Shown here piece by piece: positions 7,513 through 52,700 of a stretch of 64,000 bases of DNA. The notes below the pieces were generated by a model. It saw nothing but the letters and a program-made list of their open reading frames with translations. It made no database searches and had not been told where the DNA came from. Each line of letters opens with the position of its first letter. Position 1 is the first letter of the stretch. Source of the DNA: Nitrosopumilus sp. (GTDB taxonomy: Archaea > Thermoproteota > Nitrososphaeria > Nitrososphaerales > Nitrosopumilaceae). The stretch covers positions 480,001-544,000 of the forward strand of contig OZ245040.1 in the NCBI GenBank assembly GCA_965224195.1, read 5' to 3'. The translations under genes were made by a program, and so were the position numbers.

Positions 7513-7613
7513 AATTACCAACTTTCATCTTTTCATTATTTTTAATATCCTTTAGTGAAAACTATGGAATTTTTACATTCTAATAATTACTAATTCTTAC
7601 AAAGTCCACAATA

Positions 7614-8147: not shown

Positions 8148-8185
8148 CGTGATGACTTTGACCAGATTCCTTAAAGTCCTTTCTC

Positions 8186-8500: not shown

Positions 8501-8596
8501 ATTTTCATTATTGTTTTCTAGAAGATAAAACTTGGTTTATTGTTTTACGGAAACCGTAAAGAAGAATCTAATAAATGAAAAGGAAAAGTGGGTTGT

Positions 8597-9166
8597 TTAA
8601 ATTACTTGCCAGGGTCGTGTTGCAAACGTAATGACATATCCAACACCGATAATAATTGATTGATATGCGATGTTAGTATATGGGATTGGTTTGATAATTG
8701 GATCTCCTTCAACTACTACTGTTTGACCTGGACCAAGTCCTGGACCAACTTTTGCTACGTTGAGTTGGGTGTGTACGTGGTATACACCTGCTTCAAGTGC
8801 TTTGGCAGATAGTGAGTAATCGATGACTGAGTTACCTGAAATGTCAAAGACGTTTCCTGGTGGATCTCTTGCCAGCATCTCCCATCTATTACCTGCGTTG
8901 GTTGACTCTGTGAAAATTGATAGCCATCCTCTTAGGTCTCTTTCTACTAAACTAACTAAAGTTCCTTGAACTGTCAAGGTTTCGCCAGTTTGTAGGGATT
9001 GTCTGTTGAAGGTTTCATCCTCAATTCTGATGAAACGACTCTGGAGTTGTGCTTGGACACCGTGTGCATCTGCAGTTGGAAGTACGGATTCAACCCAGTT
9101 GAAACCTAAAGTTCCTAGTGCAAGTACTACAGCTAGTCCAAATACGAAAATTCTTTTTTCGACCAT
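8597..9166 (-). CDS. amoB: Ammonia monooxygenase subunit B
   Basis: Signal peptide then AHGVQAQLQSRF, YHVHTQLNV; 189 aa from ATG at 9166. Confidence 0.97.
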   Translation of the reverse strand: MVEKRIFVFGLAVVLALGTLGFNWVESVLPTADAHGVQAQLQSRFIRIEDETFNRQSLQTGETLTVQGTLVSLVERDLRGWLSIFTESTNAGNRWEMLARDPPGNVFDISGNSVIDYSLSAKALEAGVYHVHTQLNVAKVGPGLGPGQTVVVEGDPIIKPIPYTNIAYQSIIIGVGYVITFATRPWQVI

Positions 9167-9419
9167 AGTTATCCCTAAAGTCAGGAAACAAAACACGTCG
9201 TTATATGTTTTACCTTGACAACGAGGATCGATATTAAATTCAATGTATATCATTGATGTATAACACTGAAATTGATAAAAAAATGGACTAAATTATGATA
9301 TTTTAAATGTAAGAATATGTAATATTTCTATATTATTTCTATAGAATTATAATAAATTGGAAAAAATTAGCATCTTCTAAAACTCTTACTTTATATTCCG
9401 AATTCACGTGATGATATAC

Positions 9420-16375: not shown

Positions 16376-17010
16376 AATAGTGCAGTATCATCGTTGAATT
16401 CTTCACCGCCTGATTTTCTCATATTGAGATATCTATCCAATGCCCTTGATGCTTCAGGTGTGAGAAAAGCCCAATATCCCTCTTCAGATTCATCATATAC
16501 TATAATTGCATAACAATCATCTGGCATCCTTTCTAGTCCGTCATATGCCAGGACTGGCTCAGCTATACCATTTGGTCTAATTCCAGTTGATGACAAAAAA
16601 TGAATTAATGCCTTTTCTACTAATTTTGTAGTAGCGCCCAATAAACCAAATACATCATCATCAGATGCAGCGTCTTTACCCCCTTTCTTTCTCTTGTCAT
16701 TTTTGATAGATCTTCTGACTATTTTCTTATGCCATAGTATAGCATTCATATCAAAGAATAATTCTGTAGATGATATCATAACTTGTATTGCTGATTTTTT
16801 TAATGATTCGTTAAGGTAGTAAACCCATGCTTGTAATACGTCTGTTATTTTTTATGGCTCAAATGCAATGAGTTCATCAAAGGACGTATTAGTTTTGATG
16901 TATTTGTTAGATGATGTAAATTTCATAAAGCGATACATATCATACGAATATGTTTTTGGCAGAATCCTCGTTAATGGATCTCCAGAATTTCCTATATTCT
17001 GGGTGTTCTA
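16376..17010 (-). pseudogene. Truncated tyrosine recombinase/integrase
   Basis: KALIHFLSSTGIR...YWAFLTPEAS..LD.Y matches the 33863 recombinase; cut at the IS junction; HxxR and Tyr half absent; 5' end approximate. Confidence 0.8.
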
Positions 17011-17110
17011 ATGCTAATTTATCACCGTGAATAATCCACTTGTAACTGTCTACCATGTAACTTTGAGCGTAAACAGGATATAAAACAATTACTAAACTAG
17101 GAGTACAAGT

Positions 17111-17665
17111 TTAATTTTCTTTCCACTTGATTGAGCATCCAATTGAGGGGTCAAAATCTTTTTCAATTTTTTCTCCAGCTATCAATTTTTCCATATTGAT
17201 GATCATTGTTTTTTCAGTTGCCTCATCATCTGGTTTCATAGCGTTGTCTATTTTTCCATGAAAAATTAGCTGTTTTTGTGCATTAAACAAGAAAGGATCT
17301 GGAGTACACATGGCACCATATTTTTTAGCAATTTCCTGTGTCTCATCTACTAAATAATCAAATTCAAATCCTTTCTCTTTTGCTGTTTCTTTCATAGCTT
17401 CAAAACTATCTTCTGGATAATCTGTAGAATCATTACTGTTGATTCCAATTATTGCTATATCTTTACCGCATTTTTCAAATAATTCATTGAGTGCGTCTAC
17501 TTTTGCTTTCACATATGGACAATGATTACACATGAAAATTACTAGAATTCCTTTGTAATTCCCATAATCATTTAGTGAATGTGTTTTATCGTCAATTCCC
17601 ATTAATTCAAAACCTGGTGCGATATCTCCTGTTTTTAGTTTGATTTGTGATTCTAAAAGTACCAT
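17111..17665 (-). CDS. Thioredoxin-fold AhpC/TSA protein
   Basis: FMCNHCPYV, CTPDPF, PSIGCSIKW. Confidence 0.92.
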   Translation of the reverse strand: MVLLESQIKLKTGDIAPGFELMGIDDKTHSLNDYGNYKGILVIFMCNHCPYVKAKVDALNELFEKCGKDIAIIGINSNDSTDYPEDSFEAMKETAKEKGFEFDYLVDETQEIAKKYGAMCTPDPFLFNAQKQLIFHGKIDNAMKPDDEATEKTMIINMEKLIAGEKIEKDFDPSIGCSIKWKEN

Positions 17666-17745
17666 ATTGAAAATATCGTGTTTTCAAATAAAATCCTTGC
17701 CAAGAAGACAACAATTAAAATCCACACTTTATCCATTCTTCTTGT

Positions 17746-17819
17746 GGGCCGGTAGTATAGCCTGGTAGTATACCCGCCTTGCACGCGGGGGGTCACGGAT
17801 TCGAATTCCGTCCGGTCCA
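17746..17819 (+). tRNA. tRNA-Ala(TGC)
   Basis: Cloverleaf, CCCGC-CTTGCAC-GCGGG, G3:U70 pair. Confidence 0.95.
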
Positions 17820-27014: not shown

Positions 27015-27434
27015 ATGGTGAATTACTGGTTAGCAAAACAAGAACCTAGTGGACCGAGAGGATATAATTTTGAACAATTCAAAAAAGAAAAAACAACAGT
27101 GTGGGATGGGGTTCATAATAATTTAGCATTAAAGCATATGCGAGAAATGAAATCCGGTGATCTAGTATTATTTTATCATACGGGAGATGAACGACAAGCC
27201 GTTGGAATTATGCAAGTTACTTCAAAACCATATTCAAATCCTAAAGAAGATGTAGAGAGATTCATTGTAGTTGATGTGAAATATAAAAAAACATTGAAAC
27301 GCCCAGTAACCCTTGACGAAATGAAAAAAGAGAAAAAATTCAAGGATTGGGAATTAATTAGAATTTCAAGGTTATCTGTAATGCCAGTACCCAAACCCAT
27401 CTGGGATAATGTTGTAAAGATGTCTCAAAACTAA
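27015..27434 (+). CDS. EVE domain protein
   Basis: YWLAKQEP, WDGVHN..A, GDLVLFYHT, RLSVMPV. Confidence 0.92.
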   Translation: MVNYWLAKQEPSGPRGYNFEQFKKEKTTVWDGVHNNLALKHMREMKSGDLVLFYHTGDERQAVGIMQVTSKPYSNPKEDVERFIVVDVKYKKTLKRPVTLDEMKKEKKFKDWELIRISRLSVMPVPKPIWDNVVKMSQN

Positions 27435-27446
27435 CAATAATTGGAA

Positions 27447-27486
27447 ATTGATATAATTATTGATATAATTATTGATATAATTATTG
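27447..27486. repeat. Tandem repeat (ATTGATATAATT) x3.3
   Basis: Directly visible. Confidence 0.9.
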
Positions 27487-27532
27487 CTGAGATTCTGTAA
27501 TATTTTTTTCTTTAATTCAAAAATAAAAACTA

Positions 27533-27615
27533 GTCAGGTTTCCGAAGTATGGTATCGAGGTTGTCTGAAAAACAACAGCTTCCTAGGCACATGGGTTCGA
27601 ATCCAATACCTGACG
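27533..27615 (+). tRNA. Atypical tRNA: GAA (Phe) anticodon with long variable arm and G73
   Basis: Acceptor GTCAGGT/ACCTGAC, anticodon arm GTTGT-CTGAAAA-ACAAC, 14-nt variable region, T arm ATGGG-TTCGAAT-CCAAT (1 mismatch). Confidence 0.75.
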
Positions 27616-27742
27616 GGTTTATTAATTATAATATGAATAATAATAAAAAGATTTATCGTTCTTGAGATTGAAATTCATATCTACATAACGTTACAGAACC
27701 TACAAAAGTATTCATTAAATACAATATGCCACAAATTATTTT

Positions 27743-30481
27743 GTGAGGCCCGAAGATAGTGCACGTCAAGAAATTGATAAAATGCTAATTGATTCAGGTT
27801 GGATAATTCAAGATCATGAGACTAGGAATCTTAGTGAATCGCTAGGTATTGCAGTAAGAGAATATCCGCTAAGTAAGGATAATGTAGATTATGCTCTTTT
27901 CATTAATTCTCAACCCGTAGGAGTAGTAGAGGCAAAAAAATATGGTCATACGTTAAGTGGCGTAGTAGAGCAATCTGAAAAATATCTAGATGGTTTGCAT
28001 GAAAAATTTACCCATTCACCAATACGACCTCCATTTTCATACGAAACCACGGGAATTGAGACAAAATTTGCAGACAGACGTGATCCTAATTTTCGCTCTC
28101 GTTATGTCTTTACATTTCACAGACCTGAATTGCTACAATCCTGGCTCAAAGAAGAGAAAACATTACGTGCAAGATTAAACAACATACCAAAATTGGATCC
28201 TGGTATACTTTGGGAGTGTCAAATTGAAGCCATCACAAATCTAGAGAATTCTCTTTCACAGAATAAACCACGTGCCTTAATTCAGATGGCAACAGGTTCT
28301 GGTAAAACATTCACTGCCGTAACTGCAATTTATCGATTAGTCAAATTTGCAAAGGCAAAAAAAATTTTATTTTTAGTTGACAGGTCAAATTTGGGCAGAC
28401 AGGCATTGCGTGAATTTCAACAGTATGAAACACCTGATGATGGGAGAAAATTTACTGACTTGTATAACGTACAACTGCTACAATCACACACAATTGATCC
28501 TGTCCCAAAAGTTGTAATCTCAACAATTCAAAGAATGTTTTCAATTCTAAAAAATGATAAAGACTATGAGGATGAAAATGATGAATTTTCATCGTTTGAA
28601 GATTTACAGGATGAAACTCCAGTTGAAGTACACTACAATGAAAATATGCCAATTGGAGAATTTGATTTTATTGTTATTGATGAATGTCATCGTTCTATTT
28701 ACAATAAATGGAAACAAGTTCTTGATTACTTTGATTCGTTTTTAATCGGATTGACTGCAACTCCGTCAAATGACACTGTAGGATTTTTCAACAACAACCA
28801 GGTAATGAGGTATACTCATGAGCGAGCAGTTGTAGATGGAGTCAATGTTGGATATCACATGTATAAAATCAAGACCAAAATAACTGATCAAGGGAGTACA
28901 GTAGATGCAGGTCAGTTTATTGAAAAACGTGACAGATTGACACGTAAACGAGAAGCAGAACTGCTTGACATTGACTTGATTTATGCTAAGAACGAACTTG
29001 ACAAATCTGTTGTGTCAAAAGACAGAATCAGATTAATAATTAAAACATTCAAGGAACGATTGCCTGAAATTTTCCCAAACAGGACCCATGTTCCAAAGAC
29101 TCTGATATTTGCAAAAGATGACTCTCATGCAGAAGACATTACAGGTATTGTACAAGAAGAGTTTGGGTTGGGAAATGAGTTTTGCAAAAAAATCACATAC
29201 AGAACCAAAGAAAAACCTGAAGATCTCATATCCAGTTTTAGGAATTCATCAATGCCTAGAATTGCAGTAACAGTTGACATGATTGCGACAGGAACTGACA
29301 TCAAGCCATTGGAATGCATTATCTTTATGCGAGATGTTAGAACTAGGAATTATTTTGATCAAATGAAAGGTCGTGGAACTAGAACAATAAAAAAAGACGA
29401 TTTGATTGCAGTGACTCCTGATGCTAAGAATAAAACACATTTTGTAATTGTTGATGCAGTAGGTTTACGAGAAGATTCAATGAGTGACACTCATTCTCTT
29501 TTACAAAAACCCAACGTATCTTTTACAAAATTATTGGACAAGGCAATTGACAAAAATGCGGATACTGGAGACATTGAAAGCTTGATTTATCGTTTATCTA
29601 GACTAGATAGAAAATTAAACCAAGAAGACAAGGATGAAATTGCAAATAATGGAAAGTCTCTTGTAGAAATAGGGAGAATTTTACTTGATGGAATTGATGC
29701 AGATAAAAGACTAGAACAAGCAAAAGAGCAGTTTGATACTGAAAAACCAACTGACGAACAGATTAGAATCGTATCAAAACAAATGATTGATGAATCTTGT
29801 AAAATTTTTGACTCATCGAAACTACGTAAAACCATACTTGATATCAAATCTAAAAATGAGCAAATTATTGATGATGTATCTATTGATGAATTATTAAAGG
29901 CAGGATTTACAGAACAAGTTAATTCCATTGATAAAAAAACAATAGAGAGATGGTCTGAATTTGTGGAGAAAAACAAGGATCAGATCACCGCACTTGACAT
30001 AATTTACTCAAAGCCTTACAGGATGAGAGAGATTACATTCTCAGATATCAAAGATTTGACAAACTCTATACGGAATCCACCATACAATCTCACATCAGAG
30101 ATGGTCTGGAACGCCTATTCTAGACTAGACAAGTCAAAGGTAAAGAAAAATCCAGCTAAAATGCTGACTGATTTGATATCTCTAGTTAGGTATTCTACAG
30201 GAAAAGAAGAATCATTATTGCCATTTTCAGATGTTGTAGATTCAAAGTTTGAAAAATGGCTGATACAGCAAGAGTCATCAGGGCGAGTATTTACAACAGA
30301 ACAAAAGGAATGGCTGCTTGAAATTAAAAAAGGAATAGCAAGTTCTGTCTCAATTGGCATTGAGGATTTGGATGAAATTCCATTTAACCAAAAGGGCGGT
30401 AGAGTAAAGTTTTATGAAATATTTGGAGATGATTATGAGAAGATTTTAGAAGAACTGCATGAGGTGTTGATTAATTCATGA
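27743..30481 (+). CDS. hsdR: Type I restriction enzyme R subunit (EcoAI/EcoEI-like)
   Basis: DY...VEAKK nuclease motif, MATGSGKT, DECHR, TGTD, QMKGRGTR. Confidence 0.95.
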   Translation: MRPEDSARQEIDKMLIDSGWIIQDHETRNLSESLGIAVREYPLSKDNVDYALFINSQPVGVVEAKKYGHTLSGVVEQSEKYLDGLHEKFTHSPIRPPFSYETTGIETKFADRRDPNFRSRYVFTFHRPELLQSWLKEEKTLRARLNNIPKLDPGILWECQIEAITNLENSLSQNKPRALIQMATGSGKTFTAVTAIYRLVKFAKAKKILFLVDRSNLGRQALREFQQYETPDDGRKFTDLYNVQLLQSHTIDPVPKVVISTIQRMFSILKNDKDYEDENDEFSSFEDLQDETPVEVHYNENMPIGEFDFIVIDECHRSIYNKWKQVLDYFDSFLIGLTATPSNDTVGFFNNNQVMRYTHERAVVDGVNVGYHMYKIKTKITDQGSTVDAGQFIEKRDRLTRKREAELLDIDLIYAKNELDKSVVSKDRIRLIIKTFKERLPEIFPNRTHVPKTLIFAKDDSHAEDITGIVQEEFGLGNEFCKKITYRTKEKPEDLISSFRNSSMPRIAVTVDMIATGTDIKPLECIIFMRDVRTRNYFDQMKGRGTRTIKKDDLIAVTPDAKNKTHFVIVDAVGLREDSMSDTHSLLQKPNVSFTKLLDKAIDKNADTGDIESLIYRLSRLDRKLNQEDKDEIANNGKSLVEIGRILLDGIDADKRLEQAKEQFDTEKPTDEQIRIVSKQMIDESCKIFDSSKLRKTILDIKSKNEQIIDDVSIDELLKAGFTEQVNSIDKKTIERWSEFVEKNKDQITALDIIYSKPYRMREITFSDIKDLTNSIRNPPYNLTSEMVWNAYSRLDKSKVKKNPAKMLTDLISLVRYSTGKEESLLPFSDVVDSKFEKWLIQQESSGRVFTTEQKEWLLEIKKGIASSVSIGIEDLDEIPFNQKGGRVKFYEIFGDDYEKILEELHEVLINS

Positions 30482-31866
30482 ATGAATTGATTTTAGAAGA
30501 AAAGCAAAAATTACCAAATGGATGGAAAGAATCTAATCTAAATTTATTATCTTTAGTTGTTACAAAGGGTTCCACCCCAACCACTCATGGTTTTAAATAT
30601 CAAATAATGGGTATTAATTTTATTAAAGTAGAAAATATTGTTGATGGTTGGATAGATCAAAATACTGTTCATGAATTCATAAGTCAAGATACAAATGATT
30701 ATCTAAAACGTTCACAACTACAAGAAAATGATATTTTATTTTCAATAGCTGGAACTATTGGTAGAACTAGCATTATAAGAAAAATAGATTTACCTGCAAA
30801 TACAAATCAAGCAATTGCAATTATTAGATGTCCGTGGAAATATCTGAATCCAAAATACATCCGTTTGATTTTAGACTCTCCAATTTTATTTCATATATTT
30901 AGTCTTAAGACTCGTGGAGTTGGAATTTATAATCTTAGTTTAAATGATATTAAAGAATTAAAAATTCCAATTCCTCCACTAAACGAACAAAAAAGAATCG
31001 TAGCAAAAATTGAATCAATCTTCTCCCAGATTGATGCAGGACAAACCAAGCTAGATGCGGTTAAGATATTGTTGAAGCAACAGAAACAATCTGTTCTAAA
31101 AGTAGCTTTTGAAGGTAATCTTGTACCACAAGATCCAAATGATGAACCAGCTGAAGTATTATTAAAGAAAATTCATGTCGATTCAAAGATAGAATTTGAC
31201 AAAGAGAATCTTCCAAAGGGATGGATTAGAACAAAAATTGGATTTACTATTGATCCATCAAAAGACAGATTTGATCCGATTACAAATAAAAATAAAACAT
31301 TCATTGGTCTAGAGCACATTGAAAGTAATACTGGAAAGATTATTAGAAAAGGAGAATCAAAAAATCTTACAAGTACAAAAACAATATTCAGATCAGGGGA
31401 TATTTTGTATGGAAGACTACGTCCATATCTTAACAAAGTATGTGTCCCTAATTTTAACGGAGTATGTTCAACAGATATTCTAGTTTTAAAAAAAAACTCT
31501 TTTCTATCAAATAGATTTATTGCGTTATTTTTTGCAACCAATTGTTTTGTCACATATGCAAATGCAAATATGACTGGAGTCCAACATCCTCGTATTAGTT
31601 TCAAAAAAATCTCAATATTTACAATTCCACTTCCACCACTCAACGAACAACATCGCATAGTTACCAAAATCGAATCAATCTTTGGCAGAATTGATGCAAT
31701 TGAAAAGCAAGTAAATGATTCACTAATTAAGCTTGATCACTTGAAAAAAAGTGTACTCAAAAAGGCTTTTGAAGGCAAGCTTGTGCCACAGGATCCAAAT
31801 GATGAACCAGCATCTGTTTTATTGGATAAAATCAAATTAGAGAAATCTCATGTACAGAAAAAATAA
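30478..31866 (+). CDS. hsdS: Type I R-M specificity subunit, complete (TRD-A + TRD-B)
   Basis: Two LP.GW-TRD-PPLNEQ..IV units, each followed by a coiled coil ending AFEG.LVPQDPNDEPA; ATGA overlap with hsdR. Confidence 0.95.
   Translation: MNELILEEKQKLPNGWKESNLNLLSLVVTKGSTPTTHGFKYQIMGINFIKVENIVDGWIDQNTVHEFISQDTNDYLKRSQLQENDILFSIAGTIGRTSIIRKIDLPANTNQAIAIIRCPWKYLNPKYIRLILDSPILFHIFSLKTRGVGIYNLSLNDIKELKIPIPPLNEQKRIVAKIESIFSQIDAGQTKLDAVKILLKQQKQSVLKVAFEGNLVPQDPNDEPAEVLLKKIHVDSKIEFDKENLPKGWIRTKIGFTIDPSKDRFDPITNKNKTFIGLEHIESNTGKIIRKGESKNLTSTKTIFRSGDILYGRLRPYLNKVCVPNFNGVCSTDILVLKKNSFLSNRFIALFFATNCFVTYANANMTGVQHPRISFKKISIFTIPLPPLNEQHRIVTKIESIFGRIDAIEKQVNDSLIKLDHLKKSVLKKAFEGKLVPQDPNDEPASVLLDKIKLEKSHVQKK
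31011..31038 (+). other. Putative recombination site A1 (11-6-11; spacer TCTCCC)
   Basis: TGAATCAATCT-TCTCCC-AGATTGATGCA, arms 10/11 inverted; inside a 146-bp repeat (31009-31154) that recurs inverted at 36034-36179. Confidence 0.7.
31201..31631 (+). repeat. ~430-bp inverted repeat (TRD-B), partner 36217-36647
   Basis: Sense and antisense translations of both copies are identical except for one substitution (T4A9 vs T5A8). Confidence 0.92.
31671..31698 (+). other. Putative recombination site B1 (spacer TTGGCA)
   Basis: CGAATCAATCT-TTGGCA-GAATTGATGCA; overlaps a 35-bp perfect repeat (31672-31706) that recurs inverted at 35422-35456. Confidence 0.7.
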
Positions 31867-31877
31867 ATTTCCAAGAT

Positions 31878-32081
31878 CTAACTGATAAATTTAGATAAAA
31901 TTGTCTTTATTTCCAAAAATATCTTTTTGTTTATTTTTCCAATATTCATTTTAATCAGTTTTTTCTCCACACTAAAAATTCGATTTATTTTTACCCCACT
32001 ATCTACAATCAAATTTCCTTCTTCCATATTTTCGTTTGTAATAATTAGATCATAATCTCTCTTTGCCAAATTAAATATCAA
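31878..32081 (-). pseudogene. C-terminal fragment of a PemK/MazF-like toxin
   Basis: Pattern GNL..DS.VKINRIFSVEKKLI...IGKI resembles the PemK C-terminal half; N-terminal RP motif absent. Confidence 0.45.
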
Positions 32082-32161
32082 TGGAATAACAACCCCATCT
32101 CTTGATTTTTTTTATCATGTTTGTCATTTGATATATTTAATTAATATATCAGAAATGATTC

Positions 32162-33313
32162 ATGAAATCATTGTTATTTCAGCACATATTTCTTCAGACA
32201 GAATTAGGTGGTCTGGTAATATTAACAATAATTATTGCAGTCATAACAAGTGTGATTTTTTATGCTGCTTCCCAAAGAAGCATATCTGCAATCAAAAAGA
32301 AATTACAGCCCTTTAGTAACTTGGATCCAAAAATACAGTATGACGTATCACGAATTGAAACTGATTTGAAAACTGCATACGAAGATTTAACTTCTCTGAA
32401 AACCAATTTACCACACACAAATGAAGTTACATCATTACAGGACAACATACAAAAGCTTTGCTTGGATTTTACATACTTGAAAGAAAACATAGATGAACAG
32501 ATGAATAAATTCAAACTTGGAACTACTGAGGATTTACATAAGACAAAAGATGAGATGATAAAAAATGCGACACAGACAGTCACAGAGCATGCAAACAATC
32601 TCTTACTTGAAAACAGTGTATCCAGAGAAGAATTCGAAAATCTTAAAGAAAGAATTGAAAAAATGGTGGGAGTAGATGAAATAACAGAGAGAATGGAAGT
32701 ATTACAGTTATTATTTGATTCATCACAGATTAAGACATTAAATTGGCAGTGTAAGTTAATTCGATTGTTAAATGGAGGATTGGCACCAGATGCCGAAGAA
32801 GATATTATTATTTCTGAAGGTATTCCAAAATCAAGTTGTGATAAATTCTTAAAAAAACTAACAGATGTTGGAATTACAGAAAACAAAAAAATATCAGCAT
32901 TTTATTTATTACCTGAGTATGAATGGATTTATAGCTATGTTGATAATCCTGATTGGTTACAAAAAAAACTAGATGGTACAATCAAAAAAGAAAATGAATA
33001 TCAAGAATATGTGAAAAATAACTTGAATTTAATAGAAGACGGATTATTACTTGAAAAATCAGAGTATGTGTTAGCAACAGGAAAAATTGATTTTGTTTGT
33101 AGAGATAAAAACGGCTTGGCAGTTGGCTTGGAATTAAAATATCCAATAGCTACAACCACTGTGAAACGACAGATATTAGGATACAAAAATGACTATGAAC
33201 AAAAATCAGGCAGAATAGATTCTAGATTTATTGTTGTCGCACCTAAAATTCCAGACAAACTAAAGGAACTACTTGATATAGATAATATTGAATATAGAGA
33301 GATTGACTTTTAA
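32162..33313 (+). CDS. Membrane-anchored coiled-coil protein with C-terminal NucS/EndoMS-like PD-(D/E)xK nuclease domain
   Basis: TM at aa ~16-36, heptads, then E..YQEY...IEDGL...EY...GKIDFV.RD.....LELK.......QILGY. Confidence 0.7.
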   Translation: MKSLLFQHIFLQTELGGLVILTIIIAVITSVIFYAASQRSISAIKKKLQPFSNLDPKIQYDVSRIETDLKTAYEDLTSLKTNLPHTNEVTSLQDNIQKLCLDFTYLKENIDEQMNKFKLGTTEDLHKTKDEMIKNATQTVTEHANNLLLENSVSREEFENLKERIEKMVGVDEITERMEVLQLLFDSSQIKTLNWQCKLIRLLNGGLAPDAEEDIIISEGIPKSSCDKFLKKLTDVGITENKKISAFYLLPEYEWIYSYVDNPDWLQKKLDGTIKKENEYQEYVKNNLNLIEDGLLLEKSEYVLATGKIDFVCRDKNGLAVGLELKYPIATTTVKRQILGYKNDYEQKSGRIDSRFIVVAPKIPDKLKELLDIDNIEYREIDF

Positions 33314-33364
33314 TAAATTTAACTAGAAAAAGTTTGCAAATTAGAAAATTTATTCAGTTTATTT

Positions 33365-33579
33365 TCAAAAATTCTTTCAGAGTTAATCCTGATTATTTTA
33401 TTATGGAACATAGTGCACCTCTTGCTATTTCTTTGTGATTTGGAACAGTTATTCTTCTGTGAGGATTAATCTTTATTTCTCAATATTATGTGACTGCCTG
33501 TTTGATGATCAACATCATATCCCTTTTTGTGCAATATCTTGAGTAACTCTCTTGCCGAAATAATAGGCAGTTTAGACAG
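33365..33579 (-). pseudogene. hicA: HicA toxin with premature stop
   Basis: LSKLPIISARELLKILHKKGYDVDHQTGSHIILR...TVPNHKEIARGALCSIIK*SGLT; CTG start; not in ORF track. Confidence 0.8.
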
Positions 33580-33585
33580 GTACCT

Positions 33586-33783
33586 CTACAGTTTCTTCAT
33601 CAATGGAGAACGGAATTGGTTCACCATGTTTTTTAGACTTGCGATATATCCTGAAATAGCATCCTTGATGTTAGTTATTGCTAATTCTCTTGCATCTCCT
33701 TGAGATATATATCCAGGCAATTCTAGAACCTCTGATACAAACATCCCATCTTCGTCTTGTTTTATGAATATTCTAAACTTCAT
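33586..33783 (-). CDS. hicB: HicB family antitoxin
   Basis: MKFRIFIKQDEDG.FV.EV.ELPGYISQG...A..NIKDAI. Confidence 0.85.
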   Translation of the reverse strand: MKFRIFIKQDEDGMFVSEVLELPGYISQGDARELAITNIKDAISGYIASLKNMVNQFRSPLMKKL

Positions 33784-33862
33784 GTGATTTGTTAGATACA
33801 TTTAGTATAAAAATTTGAACCATGTGAAATAGTTACAAGTTTCATAAAATATGATTTATAAT

Positions 33863-34777
33863 TTAAATCTCTAGTTTAAACATGACTTTCTTAAATTCTG
33901 CAAATAATTCGCTTAATGTAGGAGTAAAATAAATACCATCAAGACCATTTTTGTGTCCCATTAGCTTTTCTGCAATGTTGTAGTTTACTGAATTATCTAG
34001 TTTTAGAATCGTATTGAATCTTTTTCTAAACCCATGATCAACTTGTACATTATAACGATGATTTTGTTTCTGTCTGATAATGTTACTTTTTAATATTGAT
34101 CTGTATATTACAGATCTAACCCCATTCCATCCAAGCTGCTTTTGAATTGTTTTATCAATTCCAAATATCGGAGTATTATTGCAAAATATTTCTCCTTTTT
34201 GTTTACGTAAATTGTGATATTTGTCAAGAATTGTGGATGCCTGTGGTGTTAGAAATGACCAATATTCGTCTACATCTTCAGCATAAAGCAATACGGCATA
34301 ACTATTGCAAGGCATTTTTTTCATATGTCTAATTGATAAATTATGATCAAAGATTCCTACTCTTGCACCTGTAGATGCAAGAAAATGAATTAATGTCTTG
34401 TTTCTAATGTTCTTCTCCGTATATAATATGTCACGAATTTCATTTGTAGTGTATGATCTCAAGTTTGGGGTTTTTTGTTTTTGCGGAAACATCTTGTATA
34501 TTTTGTTCCAATTAAGATAGATTTCATTCATAATACAAAAATGTTTGATTCCTTGAAACTTTGATGGTATTGAATTAGAATTTGTTGTTTGTTTTAGTTG
34601 TATTAAATAATTTTCTAACTCATGTTGCAATTCTGATGTAGAATAAAGTAATAGTAAATCAACAGAATTTATTTTCATAAATTTAATGAACTGTTTTAGA
34701 TGTGAATTATAATTTTTTGCAGTGTATTTTGATTTGATAGATTCTTCAAATAATATGAGGCTTCTTTGATTTAACAC
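33863..34777 (-). CDS. Tyrosine recombinase (candidate hsdS invertase)
   Basis: Catalytic motifs present: STGAR, HGFRKRF, LMGH, GIYF. Confidence 0.9.
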   Translation of the reverse strand: MLNQRSLILFEESIKSKYTAKNYNSHLKQFIKFMKINSVDLLLLYSTSELQHELENYLIQLKQTTNSNSIPSKFQGIKHFCIMNEIYLNWNKIYKMFPQKQKTPNLRSYTTNEIRDILYTEKNIRNKTLIHFLASTGARVGIFDHNLSIRHMKKMPCNSYAVLLYAEDVDEYWSFLTPQASTILDKYHNLRKQKGEIFCNNTPIFGIDKTIQKQLGWNGVRSVIYRSILKSNIIRQKQNHRYNVQVDHGFRKRFNTILKLDNSVNYNIAEKLMGHKNGLDGIYFTPTLSELFAEFKKVMFKLEI

Positions 34778-34890
34778 TATATAACATTCTTGTAAAGTTT
34801 GTATTTTTGCATAAATGTTTCATAAAATAGATTATCATATTTTTATTTAAAATGTTACTAAAGAATCATATTTTTTATTTCTACTGCAAG

Positions 34891-35130
34891 TTATTTTACA
34901 AGTCCATTATTGTAATCTTTTTCAAATTCATTTCTATCAATGCTTACATCTGTAAGAATTTGTAATTGCAAACCGATTTTTAAGATTTTATTTCCAGCTG
35001 GAACTGTTGTAAAAACATTGTTCTGTCTTAACGTAACATGGCTTCCTTTTCTGCTGGTTATCAAAAATTCTTTTTTGATCAAATATTTTATCATGATATT
35101 GCCAGAAATTCTTGGAATTCTATTCGTCAC
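34891..35130 (-). CDS. hicA: HicA family toxin
   Basis: RIPRISG...RKGSHVTLR...TVP...LKIG...IL. Confidence 0.85.
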   Translation of the reverse strand: MTNRIPRISGNIMIKYLIKKEFLITSRKGSHVTLRQNNVFTTVPAGNKILKIGLQLQILTDVSIDRNEFEKDYNNGLVK

Positions 35131-35341
35131 GTTTTTGAATAATCAACAAATTAAAATCATCTGTATTTCCAATCTCTTCTGATGCAAGATCTACGACTTC
35201 TTTCATGTTCTCCATTACTTCTCCATATGTTTCTCCTTGTGAATTAGCATGTAATTCATCACACCTTCCAATAAATCCTCCATCAATTTTATCTGGAGTT
35301 ATGATAACAGTGTATGTTTTTTTCTGTATTGTAGAACTCAT
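35120..35341 (-). CDS. hicB: HicB family antitoxin
   Basis: YTVII..D..DGGF.G.C.EL.ANSQGET..E.MENMKE. Confidence 0.85.
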   Translation of the reverse strand: MSSTIQKKTYTVIITPDKIDGGFIGRCDELHANSQGETYGEVMENMKEVVDLASEEIGNTDDFNLLIIQKRDE

Positions 35342-36686
35342 GATATGATATCATTGTAAAAAGTATTAAAAGTATTCTAAATTTTATGGATAAAATAATA
35401 TGTACAGATAAGATTACACTATTTTCAATTGCATCAATTCTGCCAAAGATTGATTCAATTTTGAAGACGATGCGTTTTTGCTCGTTGAGGGGAGGTAGAT
35501 GAATCTGAAAATTACGAAATTTGATTAAATTTACTCTTGGTCTAGTTGTTCCTTGGGTATGTTCATTAAATTGCTTGATAACTATGTTTGAATTTATCAT
35601 ATATGTTAGAAATTTTTTTAAAACAAACTCATCACCCACTCTTATCCTAATTATATCTGCAACAATTATGCCTGCCTTTAAAGAAGAAGGAACAATACAT
35701 GCTTTTCCTACTGGAAATCCTAATTTTGTTACTACAATATCATTTTGATGAAAATTATGTCTTTTCAATTTTTGAGCTTTTTCTTTTGTAACGCATATGA
35801 TATTTTTATTAATAAAATAATTTCGTTTAACATTTTGTAATCTAATCAAAGGAATTCCATCATTTACATATTCAGATGATTTGAGATTCGAACCAAAAGG
35901 TCCATCTACAATATCCTGTTTAGGGTTATGGGCCATATCTTTTATTCTAACACATATCCACCCATTTGGAAGATTATCTTTCTCAAAGACTAATTTTTCT
36001 TTGGAGTTTTTGTGTATCTTTTTCAAAAGAATCTCAGCTGGTTCATCATTTGGATCTTGTGGTACAAGGTCACCTTCAAAAGCTACTTTTAGAACAGATT
36101 GTTTCTGTTGCTTCAACAATATCTTAACCGCATCTAGCTTGGTTTGTCCTGCATCAATCTGGGAGAAGATTGATTCAATCTTGGAGACGATGTGGTGCTG
36201 TTCGTTTAGTGGCGGGAGTGGAATTGTAAATATTGAGATTTTTTTGAAACTAATACGAGGATGTTGGACTCCAGTCATATTTGCATTTGCATATGTGACA
36301 AAACAATTGGTTGCAAAAAATAACGCAATAAATCTATTTGATAGAAAAGAGTTTTTTTTAAAAACTAGAATATCTGTTGAACATACTCCGTTAAAATTAG
36401 GGACACATACTTTGTTAAGATATGGACGTAGTCTTCCATACAAAATATCCCCTGATCTGAATATTGTTTTTGTACTTGTAAGATTTTTTGATTCTCCTTT
36501 TCTAATAATCTTTCCAGTATTACTTTCAATGTGCTCTAGACCAATGAATGTTTTATTTTTATTTGTAATCGGATCAAATCTGTCTTTTGATGGATCAATA
36601 GTAAATCCAATTTTTGTTCTAATCCATCCCTTTGGAAGATTCTCTTTCTCAAAAACTGATTCTTTTTTGATCAATGATTCACTCAT
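35289..36686 (-). CDS. hsdS: Second Type I specificity gene (TRD-B + TRD-C) lacking the conserved C-terminal tail
   Basis: ATG at 36686 overlaps the stop of the upstream ORF; homology ends at IFGRIDAIE, followed by a 44-aa unrelated run-on into hicB. Confidence 0.9.
   Translation of the reverse strand: MSESLIKKESVFEKENLPKGWIRTKIGFTIDPSKDRFDPITNKNKTFIGLEHIESNTGKIIRKGESKNLTSTKTIFRSGDILYGRLRPYLNKVCVPNFNGVCSTDILVFKKNSFLSNRFIALFFATNCFVTYANANMTGVQHPRISFKKISIFTIPLPPLNEQHHIVSKIESIFSQIDAGQTKLDAVKILLKQQKQSVLKVAFEGDLVPQDPNDEPAEILLKKIHKNSKEKLVFEKDNLPNGWICVRIKDMAHNPKQDIVDGPFGSNLKSSEYVNDGIPLIRLQNVKRNYFINKNIICVTKEKAQKLKRHNFHQNDIVVTKLGFPVGKACIVPSSLKAGIIVADIIRIRVGDEFVLKKFLTYMINSNIVIKQFNEHTQGTTRPRVNLIKFRNFQIHLPPLNEQKRIVFKIESIFGRIDAIENSVILSVHIILSIKFRILLILFTMISYHEFYNTEKNIHCYHNSR
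35430..35457 (-). other. Putative recombination site B2 (spacer TTGGCA)
   Basis: Minus strand TGAATCAATCT-TTGGCA-GAATTGATGCA. Confidence 0.7.
36150..36177 (-). other. Putative recombination site A2 (spacer TCTCCC)
   Basis: Minus strand identical to site A1. Confidence 0.7.
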
Positions 36687-36892
36687 TCTTTTTTTGAAAT
36701 TTTTGTCTTGTCCCAAACTTGAATTTGTCCGCCGTAAATTTTATCATCATATACTATTGATGGAATCTGTGCATAGAATCCTTCTCGACCAGAACTAAAC
36801 GTCTTTGCAGGCAATGGCACTTCGTATTCTTTTCCATCTGGTATTTTTATTATAACAAATACAAATTCTGGCTTTTCTTCGGACATCGACAT
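36683..36892 (-). CDS. Small hypothetical protein translationally coupled to the second hsdS
   Basis: 69 aa, beta-rich, KTFSSGREGFY; divergent from hsdM. Confidence 0.7.
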   Translation of the reverse strand: MSMSEEKPEFVFVIIKIPDGKEYEVPLPAKTFSSGREGFYAQIPSIVYDDKIYGGQIQVWDKTKISKKE

Positions 36893-36983
36893 GGTATTAT
36901 AACATTTACAAATAAATGTTTGATTTTAGGAGATAATTTTAAAGAAAAACAGTAATTAAAAACAACCATTATGAAAAAATACA

Positions 36984-38462
36984 ATGTCAAATGAGGCACC
37001 AGTTATAGTTCAAAAACTGTGGAATTTCTGCAATGTGCTTAGAGATGATGGCGTATCATATGGTGATTATGTTCAGCAGTTAACCAATTTACTATTTCTA
37101 AAAATGGCAGATGAGCAGACAAAGCCACCATACAAGAAAAAATCAATAATTCCAAAAAAATATGATTGGCAAACTTTAATTGGTAAAACGGGAGATGGTT
37201 TAGAAACTCACTACAGAAATGTCTTAGAAAATTTATCTAAAGAAAAAGAATTGTTGGGAGTAATCTTTAGAAAATCTCAAAACAAAATACAGGATCCTGC
37301 AAAACTAGAGCGCTTAATCAAGCTAATTGATGGAGATTCAAAAGACTCGATTCTTTGGAATGGGATGAATATTGATGTCAAAGGGGAAATCTATGAGGGG
37401 TTGTTAGAAAAGAATGCAGAGGATGTAAAAAGTGGTGCTGGCCAATACTTTACGCCACGTGCATTAATTGATGCAATGGTTGATGTGATGCAGCCAAAAC
37501 CCAAAGAAACAATCGGAGATCCAGCTTGTGGTACTGGTGGATTTTTTCTCTCTGCATACAAGTACATTACAGATAATTTTAATTTGGATCCTGATCAGAA
37601 AAAGTTTCTAAAAATCAAGACCTTCAAGGGATGGGATATTGTAACTGAAGTTGTAAGATTATGTGCAATGAGCATGTATTTACACGGAATAGGCGAAAAG
37701 GCAAGTCAAATCGTATCAGGCGATTCACTAATTTCTGATTCTGGAGATAGGTTTGACATAATAATGACAAATCCCCCATTTGGAAAAAAATCCAGTACAA
37801 TAATATTTTCAGAATCAGGCAGGGCAGAACGTGAAACTCTATCTTATGAAAGAGATGATTTCTGGGCAAGCACCTCAAACAAACAGCTAAATTTTCTACA
37901 ACACACAAAGACAATTCTCAAAGTAAATGGCAAATGTGCCATTGTACTGCCAGACAATGTGCTTTTTGAAGGGGGTGCAGGCGAGACCGTAAGAAAGAAG
38001 ATGTTGGAGATGATGGACTGCCATACTCTGCTAAGGCTGCCAACTGGAATATTTTATGCAGGCGGAGTAAAGGCAAACGTGCTGTTCTTTGACAAAAAAC
38101 CTGCAAGAACAGATGGAAAAGCATGGACACAAAAACTATGGATTTATGATTTTAGAACAAACCAACACTTTACATTAAAAGAGAATCAATTATCAAGAAA
38201 TAATCTAGATGACTTTGTGAAATGTTACAATGCAAAAAATATCCCAAAGCGAAAAGAATCAAAAAATTTCAAATCTTTTTCATATGATGAACTCATTAAA
38301 AGAGACAAGGTATCTTTAGATATTTTTTGGTTAAAAGATGATTCAATTGAAGATGTTGATAATTTACCTCCACCTGAAGAAATATCCAAAGAAATCAAAA
38401 ATAACCTTACATCTGCCCTTAATTCCATAGATGAATTAATTATCAATCTTGGAAGAAATTAG
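36984..38462 (+). CDS. hsdM: Type I R-M methyltransferase (N6-adenine)
   Basis: GQYFTPR, DPACGTGGF, NPPF, LRLPTGIFY. Confidence 0.97.
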   Translation: MSNEAPVIVQKLWNFCNVLRDDGVSYGDYVQQLTNLLFLKMADEQTKPPYKKKSIIPKKYDWQTLIGKTGDGLETHYRNVLENLSKEKELLGVIFRKSQNKIQDPAKLERLIKLIDGDSKDSILWNGMNIDVKGEIYEGLLEKNAEDVKSGAGQYFTPRALIDAMVDVMQPKPKETIGDPACGTGGFFLSAYKYITDNFNLDPDQKKFLKIKTFKGWDIVTEVVRLCAMSMYLHGIGEKASQIVSGDSLISDSGDRFDIIMTNPPFGKKSSTIIFSESGRAERETLSYERDDFWASTSNKQLNFLQHTKTILKVNGKCAIVLPDNVLFEGGAGETVRKKMLEMMDCHTLLRLPTGIFYAGGVKANVLFFDKKPARTDGKAWTQKLWIYDFRTNQHFTLKENQLSRNNLDDFVKCYNAKNIPKRKESKNFKSFSYDELIKRDKVSLDIFWLKDDSIEDVDNLPPPEEISKEIKNNLTSALNSIDELIINLGRN

Positions 38463-49764: not shown

Positions 49765-52700
49765 ATGGCCCACCTGTATCAATGGTTGTTATGCAACTCC
49801 ACTGAGCATAAAATAACATTAATTAGTCGGGGGGGGGGGCAGAATAAATTAGTGAGACTCGTTTTAATGCTAACCATTTTTGCAGTATCTGTCATGTCAT
49901 TGCATGGCGTTGCAGTGGCAGATGATAATCATGTCCAAAATATTTCCGTAGAGCGCAGCAGCGCCAATGTCACCATTGCAGTCTTGAGCTGGGACACACA
50001 AGAGGACATAGAGTGGTACAACATAAAGTACAAGTGCAGCGGCGATGAGAAAGAAAACTTGAGGGTGCCAGGCAACCAGTCCTCATACACATTTGATGTA
50101 TATGCTGACCAATCATGCAAAATTAACATCAGATCAATTAGTGATAGTGGCGAGAAATCAGACAATGTTAAGATAATCTTGGCAAGTGGAGAACCAACAG
50201 GTGAGATAGTAGAGAGTGTCAAGAACTTCAACAATCGTAGTAATAATGTACCTGCTGACAGTACCCTGCCAACATTAGAGTCAGCCGCACTAAATGAGGA
50301 GACCGGAGTTTTGGCAATAACTTTTGATGAGATAATTGCAAACGAGGGCTTTGACTTGTCTACTGCTGACTATACAGACAGATCTTTCTCAGTATCTAAC
50401 AGAGACACGTCTCCGTCAGGTGTAGCATTCAACCCAGACGGAACAAAGATGTTTGTTGTGGGTACCAGCAGTGGTGCCATCCATGAGTACACGCTGTCTT
50501 CTCCCTTTGACATGTCTAACCCCTCCTTTGTACGTCTTTTCTCAGTATCTTCAAACTACCCGCTTCCAACAGATGTGGCATTTAGCACAGACGGAACAAA
50601 GATGTTTGTTGTAGATTTTCAAAGTGAGAATGTTTACGAGTACACATTATCTTCTCCCTTTAACTTATCTGACCCCACCTTTATACGGGACTTTTCAGTA
50701 TCTTCACAGGACACATCTCCGTCAGGTGTGGCATTCAACTCAGACGGAACAAAGATGTTTGTTGTAGGTACTGACAATGGGAATATCAACGAGTACACGC
50801 TGTCTTCCCCATTTAACATATCTAACTCCTCTTTTGTACGCCTTTTCTCAGTATCTTCACAGGAAAGGTCTCCACAAGATGTAACATTCAACCCATCTGG
50901 AACAAAGATGTTTGTTATAGGTAATAGTAATGGTAATGTCAATGAGTACGCATTAACTGCCCCATTTAACATATCTGATCCCTCCCATACAGGCACTTTC
51001 GACGTATCTTCACAGGACACATCTCCAACAGGTGTAGCATTTAACCCTGCTGGAACAAAGATGTTTGCTGTAGGTATTGGCAGTGACAGTGTCCACGAGT
51101 ACACATTAACCACTCCAGTTGATCTATCCCTACTATTCATCAGTGAGTCAGGAAATACCAATGATATTTCACTGACTGGTGCCAGAATTACAACTGTCGG
51201 CAACAGCACCTCCATAGAAATCAAGCTGGCTGAATCTCAAAGACAGTCAGTCATTGCATTGACTACCCCAGAACTGGACATATTATCTGCTGCAGTATCT
51301 GATGTTTCAGGCAATCAAATAGGTGCATCACCAAACAATGCCATTGCAGTAACTAACAGTGTAGTGCCGCCGCCATCACTTGATGCGCCAACTAACCTTT
51401 CAGTCAATGTCATAAACGGCACAGCCGCTGAAATCACTTGGACTGCACCTACAATACCTGCCAATTCATTTTATGATATTAATTCCGTATCCTATCTCGT
51501 GAATGTCACTGATGTTGCTGCTAGCACCACCGTACTGTATACCATATCTGACGGCACCACTACCACACATACGGCAACAGGCCTGATACTTGACAAATCT
51601 TATCAGGTAACCGTAGAGGCAAAAGCCTTGTTGTCAGATTTAACCGCTATATCCTCCCAACCTACCGCAGCTGTATCCTTTGATATGCCGACACCTCCGT
51701 CACCTGATGCGCCAACTAACCTTTTAGTCAATGTCATAAACGGCACAGCCGCTGAAATCACTTGGACTGCACCTACAGTGGATGCCAATGAGTATTATAC
51801 CATTGATGATGTGGCTTATCAAGTGACTGTCATTAGTTCTGACGGTTCTGAACTCGGCGACACTGTAGATGACACCTCATATATGGTAACAGGCCTGACA
51901 CCGGGTGAGTCATACAATGTACATGTAGTTGCATATGCTGCCGTTGGATCAAAATATACTGTGGAATCATCTCCGGTATCTGCCTCCTTTAATATGCTTG
52001 CAGTAGTAAATGATGGTGCAGGCACACCGCCATCACCATCTGCTGATAATACCCCGCCAACATTAGAGTCAGCAACACTAGATGAGGGAACCGGAGTTCT
52101 GGCAATAACTTTTGATGAGATAATAGCAAACGAGGGCTTTGACGTATCCACTGCCGCCTATACAGACAACTCTTTCTCAGTATCTAACAAGGACCCGGAA
52201 CCAGAAAGCGTAACATTCAATCCTACTGGAACAAAGATGTTTGTTGTAGATTTTCAAAGTGAAAAGATCTACGAGTACACATTATCTTCTCCCTTTGACG
52301 TATCTATTGCCTCCTATACACGCAATTTCTCAGTAGGTTCACAGGACACGCATCCAAAAGATGTAACATTCAACCCTACTGGAACAAAGATGTTTGTTGC
52401 AGGTTATCAAAATGAAAAGATCTACGAGTATACATTAACTACTCCCTTTAACTTATCCACTGCCTCCTATACACACAATTTCTCAATATCTTCACAGGAC
52501 ACGGATCCAACAGGTGTAGCATTCAACCCTACTGGAACAAAGATGTTTGTTTTAGGTTATCAAAGTACGAATGTCTACGAGTACGAATTATCTTCTCCCT
52601 TTGACATATCCTCCTCCTCCTATACACACCATTTCTCAGTAGGTTCACAGGACACGCATCCAAAAGATGTAACATTCAACCCTACTGGAACAAAGATGTT

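Follow-up and report, generated by a model that had tools for sequence, protein, structure and literature searches.

[quoted passage not shown] It lies in a 64,000-nucleotide stretch of DNA (the window, to which all coordinates refer); the host genome comprises two contigs, is 99.85% complete and has a chromosome of 2.06 Mb. ORF and domain calls bear out the gene order and strands given in the initial annotation, namely hsdR-hsdS1(+), tyrosine recombinase(-), hsdS2(-), small ORF(-) and hsdM(+). The genes are:

27743–30481, + strand: hsdR, EcoAI/EcoEI-type (Type IB-like); Pfam ResIII (1.3e-37), EcoEI_R_C (1.5e-34) and Helicase_C
30478–31866, + strand: hsdS1, with TRD-A, CR1, TRD-B, CR2 and the full C-terminal tail; Methylase_S in two stretches
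32162–33313, + strand: NucS-like ORF of 383 aa with a C-terminal nuclease domain (Pfam NucS_C, 3e-14)
33469–33576, - strand: hicA remnant (tblastn to hicA, 33% identity over 36 aa, E 0.002)
33586–33801, - strand: second hicB-like ORF, degenerate (ORF translation)
33863–34777, - strand: tyrosine recombinase, with R139, H248, R251, H275 and Y283
34891–35130, - strand: hicA (Pfam HicA_toxin, 3.9e-6), upstream of the recombinase
35120–35341, - strand: hicB-like gene, upstream of the recombinase
35289–36716, - strand: hsdS2, with its own N-terminus, TRD-B, CR1, TRD-C and the start of CR2; Methylase_S in two stretches
36683–36892, - strand: small ORF of 69 aa, its stop overlapping the hsdS2 ATG
36893–36983: spacer between the small ORF and hsdM
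36984–38462, + strand: hsdM; Pfam N6_Mtase (1.2e-67) and HsdM_N (3.2e-14)

The domains are those of an EcoAI/EcoEI-like Type I system: ResIII and EcoEI_R_C in HsdR, N6_Mtase and HsdM_N in HsdM, and two Methylase_S TRDs in HsdS. Against the NCBIfam EcoAI family, hsdR scores 9.6e-58 and 196 bits where the cut-off is 550 bits, and judged from its sequence it is a relative of that family and not an equivalog. Its stop overlaps the start of hsdS1, and hsdM is divergent from the small ORF and hsdS2. The NucS_C-like ORF is cargo; the orthologous locus of another species (L033) lacks it. Paralogues of hicBA adjoin the recombinase paralogues of the same genome, and paralogues of the small ORF follow both of them. 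The small ORF matches no Pfam or NCBIfam family and falls in a 'hypothetical protein' cluster, mostly from Nitrososphaerota, in the protein atlas. It was detected solely in L033 among 80 related loci, and we therefore leave it out of the core parts.

Translation, together with alignment to hsdS2, supports the earlier description of hsdS1 as TRD-A, TRD-B and tail. The same annotation had hsdS2 ceasing to be HsdS where a 35-nt inverted repeat ends, and there the protein indeed reads IESIFGRIDAIE, with 44 non-HsdS residues making up its C-terminal end. In contrast, hsdS1 continues past this repeat into a normal C-terminal conserved region. Gene callers start hsdS2 at the ATG at 36686 (protein P0001). 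TRD-A and TRD-C share 29% identity. As in hsdS invertons generally, two hsdS copies thus lie in inverse orientation and share intragenic inverted repeats.

The 35-nt repeat is exact (31672–31706 and 35422–35456), and the flanking sequences diverge immediately on either side. A 146-nt repeat over the central linker, also noted previously, has two mismatches (31009–31154 and 36034–36179). TRD-B had been described as a shared TRD, but the repeat that it forms was missing from the earlier list: this is a third inverted repeat of 431 nt, with one mismatch (at 31488). Embedded in the two shorter repeats are 28-nt dyads with the consensus TYGMRTCAAT-N10-RTTGAYGC, two per hsdS:

31010–31037, + strand: central (CR1) dyad site of hsdS1, spacer CTTCTCCCAG, at the opening of the 146-nt repeat
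31201–31631, + strand: TRD-B arm of the 431-nt repeat in hsdS1
31670–31697, + strand: distal (CR2) dyad site of hsdS1, spacer CTTTGGCAGA, at the exact 35-nt repeat
31707–31866, + strand: sole HsdS C-terminal tail (KQVNDSLIKLDHLKKSVLKKAFEGKLVPQDPNDEP...), from translation
31707–35421: inner, putatively invertible segment between the distal sites, carrying the tail, the NucS_C-like ORF, the recombinase and the hicBA modules
35431–35458, - strand: distal (CR2) dyad site of hsdS2, spacer CTTTGGCAGA
36151–36178, - strand: central (CR1) dyad site of hsdS2, spacer CTTCTCCCAG, inside the 146-nt arm
36217–36647, - strand: TRD-B arm of the 431-nt repeat in hsdS2

The spacers fall into two classes, one common to both central sites and another to both distal sites. 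Chance does not explain the dyads, since the pattern has four matches in the window and none is expected from 100 shuffles. Chromosome-wide there are ten sites, all within the three places that carry hsdS, and a recombinase paralogue lies within 2 kb of each place. The residues encoding the left arm of the dyad are IESIF in these proteins, where named bacterial homologues have IEELF. One caveat is that the spacers are coding (FSQ or FGR), so that spacer identity within a locus could partly reflect protein constraint and common descent. A scan of 80 bacterial-type hsdS loci found no sites, but this is a weak control that cannot separate DNA from protein constraint, since the peptide, too, is missing from them.

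In the mechanism that we propose, two facing hsdS genes with their own start codons would carry dyad sites, encoded where each conserved region begins, as crossover points. Only like sites would be exchangeable in register, because the central pair and the distal pair each have their own 10-nt spacer. The recombinase of the locus would synapse like sites and invert the DNA between them. A distal flip would carry the sole C-terminal tail, along with the hicBA-recombinase cassette, over to the opposite hsdS, whereas a central flip would exchange the distal halves. The four resulting states (A/B, B/C, B/B and A/C) would each hold one complete and one tail-less subunit, and hence predict four methylation and restriction specificities. 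This logic had been set out in the initial annotation, and a simulation with two site classes yielded exactly those four states, with one complete subunit in each; two further states arise in the simulation if homologous recombination acts at the 431-nt TRD-B repeat. By inference, hsdS2 is transcribed, a tail-less HsdS is inactive and the inversions are catalysed by this recombinase; the same holds for any frequency of switching.

The call of a locus-encoded tyrosine recombinase stands up well, on a two-domain fold, the catalytic residues, and profile and structure matches. Its predicted model (mean pLDDT 89.3) retrieves XerA (5hxy, E 5.9e-10), Cre and integron integrase (TMq 0.66) in Foldseek, a profile search of PDB sequences matches XerA at 1.9e-5, and the NCBIfam XerA_Arch match is 3.9e-12 (46.3 bits). 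R139, R251, H275 and Y283 are invariant across 26 sequences, and H248 is kept in seven of eight. Going by the model, the protein has a XerA/Cre-like tyrosine recombinase fold and belongs to that superfamily, although its scores fall below the Pfam and NCBIfam cut-offs (20.6 bits for Pfam Phage_integrase, against 27.1). Archaeal XerA (PDB 5hxy, 4a8e) is its best structural and sequence match, with two domains and no arm-binding domain in either. Identity, however, is only 18–19%, and the score lies far under the 220-bit cut-off of the XerA equivalog (NF040815), which no protein of this genome reaches. XerA is a single housekeeping dif resolvase, whereas the recombinase here is multi-copy and linked to restriction-modification genes.

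This linkage is a property of a clade. At a recombinase identity of 54% or more, 23 of 37 loci have an hsdS within 5 kb (17 of 26 when only full flanks are counted) and 14 have none, compared with 0 of 43 loci below 54% identity. All but one of the 80 loci retrieved with the family's own peptides are titled as Nitrososphaerota or Thaumarchaeota lineages, the exception being a 3-kb contig binned as Hyphomicrobiaceae; on these sequences the clade appears confined to Nitrososphaerota, that odd contig aside.

The same genome has a second Type I locus built on four sites and one C-terminal tail, and at least 14 loci of other species repeat this design. A scan of 38 sources gave inverted site pairs with identical spacers in 17; between species the spacers differ, but inside each locus they match. 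Fourteen loci have an inverted distal pair; in every one of them a proper tail follows one site and unrelated sequence the other, and the truncation point is identical in these loci, which span two Type I families. The smallest cassette of hicB, hicA, recombinase and tail is 1.65 kb (L052).

These data bear on an alternative in which general homologous recombination or gene conversion over the 431-, 146- and 108-nt repeats rearranges the locus and the recombinase serves otherwise, for instance by mobilising its own hicBA cassette. Repeats of this length would suffice for RadA-type recombination, recombinase-hicBA cassettes exist without hsdS (L035, L047, L055), and pneumococcal spnIII is reported, in the source cited, to recombine without known site-specific recombinases (PMC6620402). 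Such an origin nevertheless seems unlikely, given that the distal repeats are short (26–56 nt exact) and always end at the dyad right arm (14 of 14 loci), that the recombinase clade shows close linkage to hsdS, and that the two-spacer arrangement, a requirement of tyrosine recombinases, is meaningless for homologous recombination.

For a recombinase-switched locus, as claimed in the initial annotation, the architecture, the recombinase and the four-state logic hold, but switching itself rests on one chimeric protein. A flipped junction is seen in P0002, an ENA protein from a 26,451-nt contig of another assembly, which matches hsdS2 residues 11–215 and then hsdS1 through CR1 into TRD-B. Its junction is exactly that predicted for a central-site flip. 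P0002 terminates in a frameshift (ISLV) and may be a mis-join across a 108-nt exact repeat; no near-identical fragment continuing it was found among shorter proteins (best 72% identity). Neither an A/C protein nor a B/C-plus-tail protein occurs among the best 120 protein matches, and metagenome contigs hold no near-identical hsdS2 copies in other states (relatives at most 46% identical). Logan contigs (k=31) of four public runs end at the repeats and so neither show nor exclude a second orientation. In two runs TRD depth is heterogeneous, which points to a hotspot of strain-level variation at this locus.

Several candidate rearrangements in the contigs were rejected. Support for two joints (27530 to 31285, and 31909 to 30804) was too weak. 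A loose end after 31044 is the same as one before 36144; it was not accepted as an inversion junction, being absent from the genome at up to three mismatches, and we attribute it to a variant CR1 of another strain, because it is not found in the window's own genome. A 7,434-nt contig considered as an alternative haplotype (C2) had no similarity to C1.

Rather improbable, in our judgement, is a static relic, with hsdS2 as a duplicate in decay, the recombinase as integrase of a cryptic integrated element next to tRNA-Phe, and no programmed inversion. The tRNA-Phe gene does lie 128 nt upstream of hsdR, and thaumarchaeal integrated elements are described, in the sources cited, as carrying Type I restriction-modification genes and XerC/D-type integrases, often in tRNA genes, with att sites from 8 bp (PMC6563490, PMC8371274). 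The tRNA-Phe region shares no repeat of at least 14 nt with the rest of the window, a test to be read against the reported 8-bp att (PMC8371274), and the presumed integrases of the clade below 54% identity never adjoin hsdS. A relic would also fit the single state common to related species: the three species that share the window's gene order (window, L026 and L033) all have the tail on the hsdR-linked gene, and it is on the hsdM-linked gene in L009, L034, L052 and L062. This pattern also agrees with rare or strongly biased switching, or with none since the species diverged. In L026, decay is evident, the repeats being 86–87% identical and hsdS2 degenerate, but in the window hsdS2 is open for 475 codons with its TRDs intact. 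The truncation site shared by two Type I families, the co-variation of spacers inside loci and the P0002 junction likewise argue against a relic. That the inverted repeats are an assembly artefact is hardly credible: repeats may be mis-joined, but the genome is in two contigs, contigs from two runs (~441x and ~109x) cover every segment with no differences, and the architecture is the same in independent assemblies of other species.

Inversion of hsdS is a textbook route to methylome and phage-defence variation in host-associated bacteria. In the hsd loci of Mycoplasma pulmonis (HvsR), two full-length inverse hsdS flank the other hsd genes, with two site classes, and expression depends on one fixed promoter and not on a movable C-terminus. 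Two of the related loci (L049 and L009) resemble this arrangement in that hsdM and hsdR would flip between two hsdS bodies. With SpnIII/ivr (cod) of Streptococcus pneumoniae and the bacterial 'epigenetic invertons', as these are described in the survey of Huo et al. 2020 (PMC7672463), the window locus shares inverse hsdS copies, repeats in conserved regions, a tyrosine recombinase in the locus and TRD reassortment. The recombinase here, unlike that of SpnIII-type invertons, is from a Nitrososphaerota clade; the invertase clades of bacterial invertons include PsrA, TvrR, BfiA, EfiA, MfiA and HvsR. In the bacterial paradigm of that survey, expression is confined to the first hsdS, with the copies downstream of it serving as silent templates (PMC7672463), whereas here both hsdS have start codons and a single C-terminal tail would move. 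The hosts surveyed are host-associated in 216 of 235 cases (92%; PMC7672463), in contrast to the free-living, marine Nitrosopumilus.

The initial annotation named no characterised archaeal case. We found none characterised in the literature, but Euryarchaeota hsdS invertons are already tabulated, as uncharacterised loci, in Table 1 of Huo et al. 2020 (PMC7672463); these too combine a Type I locus of an archaeon with an inverton-type recombinase, are assigned to bacterial invertase clades 2 and 5, and number 4 in one table and 11 in another. Supplementary tables aside, we found no Thaumarchaeota entry in that survey (PMC7672463), and found no hsdS inverton described for Nitrososphaerota, the archaeal listing being so far of Euryarchaeota only.

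More tentatively, and with slightly less than even confidence, we suggest that a Nitrosopumilaceae-wide system is at work, in which a self-inverting hicB-hicA-recombinase unit with the HsdS C-terminal helix acts as a movable completion token that chooses the functional hsdS, by way of in-frame, two-spacer dyads, with the clade also serving a Type IIG-like methyltransferase (L060). The same inversion logic would now extend to free-living ammonia-oxidising archaea that dominate the ocean, and its distinctive elements would be a recombinase clade of its own, a recognisable 28-nt site and a movable C-terminus as the on/off principle. It makes testable the diversification of archaeal restriction specificity against viruses, phasevarion-like epigenetic heterogeneity in these archaea, and the use of a compact recombinase-and-site pair as a tool. 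If this is true, the most abundant archaea of the ocean would run a lineage-wide recombinase switch of defence specificity and methylome, one that evolved apart from the bacterial invertase clades.

The window covers C1:480001–544000 of a two-contig, 2.07-Mb genome with 33.6% G+C and a completeness of 99.85%. The features of the locus, with those of the region just upstream, are as follows.

27015–27434, EVE-domain protein (1.1e-38), directly upstream of tRNA-Phe and the R-M locus
27533–27615, tRNA-Phe, upstream of the R-M locus
27743–30481, + strand, hsdR
30478–31866, + strand, hsdS1, its start overlapping the hsdR stop
32162–33313, + strand, 383-aa ORF with a NucS-like C-terminal domain
33469–33801, − strand, degenerate hicB/hicA pair (hicB-like ORF and hicA remnant)
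33863–34777, − strand, recombinase, 304 aa
34891–35341, − strand, hicA and hicB-like gene
35289–36716, − strand, hsdS2
36683–36892, − strand, 69-aa small ORF, its stop overlapping the hsdS2 ATG
36984–38462, + strand, hsdM, divergently transcribed
31672–31706 / 35422–35456, 35-nt inverted repeat, exact, flanks diverging immediately
31009–31154 / 36034–36179, 146-nt inverted repeat, 2 mismatches
31201–31631 / 36217–36647, 431-nt inverted repeat, 1 mismatch, spanning the entire TRD-B

This anatomy, an hsdS locus with its own recombinase, confirms what the initial annotation had described, and its interpretation was largely right with respect to architecture. In translation, hsdS1 reads TRD-A/CR1/TRD-B/CR2 (target-recognition segments alternating with the central and distal conserved regions), while hsdS2 has its own N-terminus followed by TRD-B/CR1/TRD-C, then 12 residues from the start of CR2, and finally 44 unrelated residues. 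Three inverted repeat pairs connect the two genes. Those of 35 and 146 nt had been reported before and are both present, the former exact and the latter with its 2 mismatches; the sharing of TRD-B had also been recognized, as a shared segment only, and takes the form of the 431-nt repeat. With the degenerate hicB/hicA pair on one side and the hicA and hicB-like genes on the other, the recombinase gene is flanked by two hicBA modules. The 383-aa ORF lies within the invertible segment and has no counterpart in the orthologous locus L033. Its product begins with a hydrophobic stretch, continues with a long helical part and ends in a NucS_C nuclease-like region. Just upstream of tRNA-Phe, three 12-nt units stand in tandem (27445–27488), and public sequencing run X2 lacks one of them (12 letters absent at 27447 in the sole contig there), so the copy number of these units is variable. 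Elsewhere in the window, G+C rises to 0.43 at 50001–54000 versus ∼0.33 in the remainder, and no rRNA or other Rfam family was found in this stretch. The second contig of the assembly (7,434 nt) shows no similarity to the chromosome.

Each conserved region begins with a 28-nt dyad, TYGMRTCAAT-N10-RTTGAYGC, a pattern with four matches in the window compared to 0 expected from 100 shuffles. The spacer is CTTCTCCCAG in the central pair (31010+, 36151−) and CTTTGGCAGA in the distal pair (31670+, 35431−). Exchange by a tyrosine recombinase requires identity in the crossover region. Given this, the two spacer classes would confine exchange to like sites, central with central and distal with distal. 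When inversion was simulated between like sites only, four states were obtained: A-B-tail with B-C-no tail (as assembled), A-B-no tail with B-C-tail, A-C-no tail with B-B-tail, and A-C-tail with B-B-no tail, where the tail is the HsdS C-terminal end. The list is identical to the four complete subunits predicted earlier (A/B, B/C, B/B and A/C). Four bipartite methylation motifs with common half-sites are predicted from these states, A/B and A/C having one half in common and A/B, B/C and B/B the B half. If recombination inside TRD-B is permitted as well, a half-size gene (B-tail) and one with three TRDs are added. The geometry would place the hicBA-recombinase block downstream of the tail-less gene in every case. 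Of the original shufflon reading, the architecture (gene order, repeats and four states) stands, and switching activity remains a prediction.

At the sequence level, evidence for the identity of the recombinase is weak. Pfam Phage_integrase gives an E value of 4e-4, below the cut-off, NCBIfam XerA_Arch gives 3.9e-12 (46 bits versus a cut-off of 220), and a profile built from eight relatives matches XerA (5hxy) at 1.9e-5. Predicted structure provides stronger support: an AlphaFold2 model from 26 sequences has a mean pLDDT of 89.3, and Foldseek matches it to XerA (5.9e-10), Cre, lambda Int and an integron integrase (TMq 0.66). All 26 sequences share R139, R251, H275 and Y283, and 7 of 8 have His at position 248. 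The gene thus encodes a tyrosine recombinase of the simple two-domain type. It shares the fold of archaeal XerA, although the score of 46 versus 220 bits indicates that it is not a XerA equivalog.

The sole direct hint of switching comes from P0002, a 269-aa ENA protein encoded on a 26,451-nt contig of another assembly. Its residues 1–205 equal hsdS2 residues 11–215, hsdS2-specific residues included, and from residue 206 it follows hsdS1 (EGN...VDSKIEFDKENLPKGW...) into TRD-B; four non-matching residues at its end result from a frameshift. Read this way, P0002 would be the product of a crossover within the exact 108-nt block, at the start of which the central site lies. Contigs covering TRD-A (30452–31038) and TRD-C (35428–35992) have about 62–65% of flank depth in two of the public runs (272.7 and 288.5 versus 441 in X1; 68.7 and 69.5 versus 109 in X2), and a variant in X1, at depth 44, links 30481 with 31190 through 6 additional letters, such that hsdR is directly followed by an hsdS beginning with TRD-B. 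Together, the depth deficit and this variant indicate that several hsdS alleles are present on shared flanks in the samples. Besides that of P0002, no alternative junction was found among the best 120 protein matches or in a search for shorter proteins. Moreover, the tail is on the hsdR-linked gene in all three species with the gene order of the window, and on the hsdM-linked gene in L009, L034, L052 and L062. Both these tail positions and the lack of a further junction argue against frequent switching.

All 10 Methylase_S matches of the genome fall in three places, each with a recombinase paralogue within 2 kb. One of these, L009 (C1:1088000–1107000), is a second Type I R-M system of a different family, comprising a tail-less hsdS′(−), hsdR, a YgjP-like gene, hsdM, an AAA gene, a complete hsdS(+), the small ORF, a recombinase (67% identical to that of the window), hicA and hicB. 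It repeats the design of the window, with four sites (central spacer CCTCTCTAGA, distal spacer CCTGTCAGGA) and a single tail. Next to a TRD fragment there is a fifth dyad site, its spacer 11 nt long, and a recombinase fragment and hicA remnant are found downstream of hsdS′. At L010 (C1:1938000–1954000; 7286–9169), a recombinase paralogue interrupted by a stop codon precedes the small ORF and an hsdS of half the usual size (229 aa, CR-TRD-CR); the arrangement looks like a decayed or minimal form of the hsdS switch system.

Scanning species-representative genomes with peptides of the family itself gave 80 loci, 79 of them titled as Nitrososphaerota lineages and the exception on one 3-kb contig. 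Dividing these at the gap between 46% and 54% identity, a cut chosen post hoc after the data were seen, we found hsdS within 5 kb in 23 of 37 loci at or above 54% (17 of the 26 with 5 kb available on both sides), compared to 0 of 43 below it (0 of 13 with full flanks). One clade member lacking hsdS is that of L060 (3092–11741), where a 54% identical recombinase adjoins a PLD-helicase gene and a 1157-aa Eco57I/MmeI-like methyltransferase, with an opposed 269-aa ORF of no family match; this locus may serve to switch the specificity of a Type IIG-like enzyme. Others have transposases or unrelated genes as neighbours.

The dyad was looked for in 38 sources and occurs at least once in 24 of them. 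In 17 there are one or more inverted pairs with identical spacers, and four of these 17 possess a second pair that differs at 1 of 10 bases; spacers vary between species. An inverted distal pair is present in 14 loci. In every one of them the sequence behind one site continues as a proper HsdS C-terminus and that behind the other is unrelated, with the break directly after the right arm of the dyad. The segment between the distal sites holds hicBA-recombinase-tail in the window, L026, L033, L034, L052 and L062, tail and hsdM in L040, and tail, hsdM and hsdR in L049. In L026, from a related species, the entire orthologous R-M locus is bracketed by two inverse ∼0.8-kb element copies (2117–2939 and 16984–17791), visible as many exact inverted blocks, an arrangement that resembles a composite transposon. 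No dyad site occurs in the distant recombinase clade (43 loci, 540 kb). None was found in 80 mostly bacterial hsdS loci (668 kb) either, a weak control because the peptide is missing there too. An IESIF..IDA-type peptide occurs in 45 of the 120 best homologues, and the named homologues covering this stretch (n = 6; five bacterial, one Nitrosotalea) have IEEL or IEEV in place of IESIF.

We found no description of hsdS inversion in Thaumarchaeota or Nitrosopumilus in the main-text literature searched. In the tables of Huo et al. (PMC7672463), Euryarchaeota account for 4 of 827 loci in one case and 11 of 1140 in the other. These authors class 216 of 235 hosts as host-associated, and in their account the first hsdS is the expressed one and the remaining copies act as silent templates. 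'Archae' is absent from the main text of Atack et al. (PMC7394358), as is 'restriction' from a review of archaeal tyrosine recombinases (PMC8371274), and Chanin et al. (PMC10028968) call archaeal invertons minimally investigated. In thaumarchaeal integrated elements, Krupovic et al. (PMC6563490) count 11 S, 9 M and 6 R genes of Type I systems and make no mention of inversion. As judged from sequence, the window locus belongs to a Nitrosopumilaceae-wide family of hsdS shufflons with predicted switching activity, a family with a recombinase clade of its own, a defined site and the logic of a movable tail.
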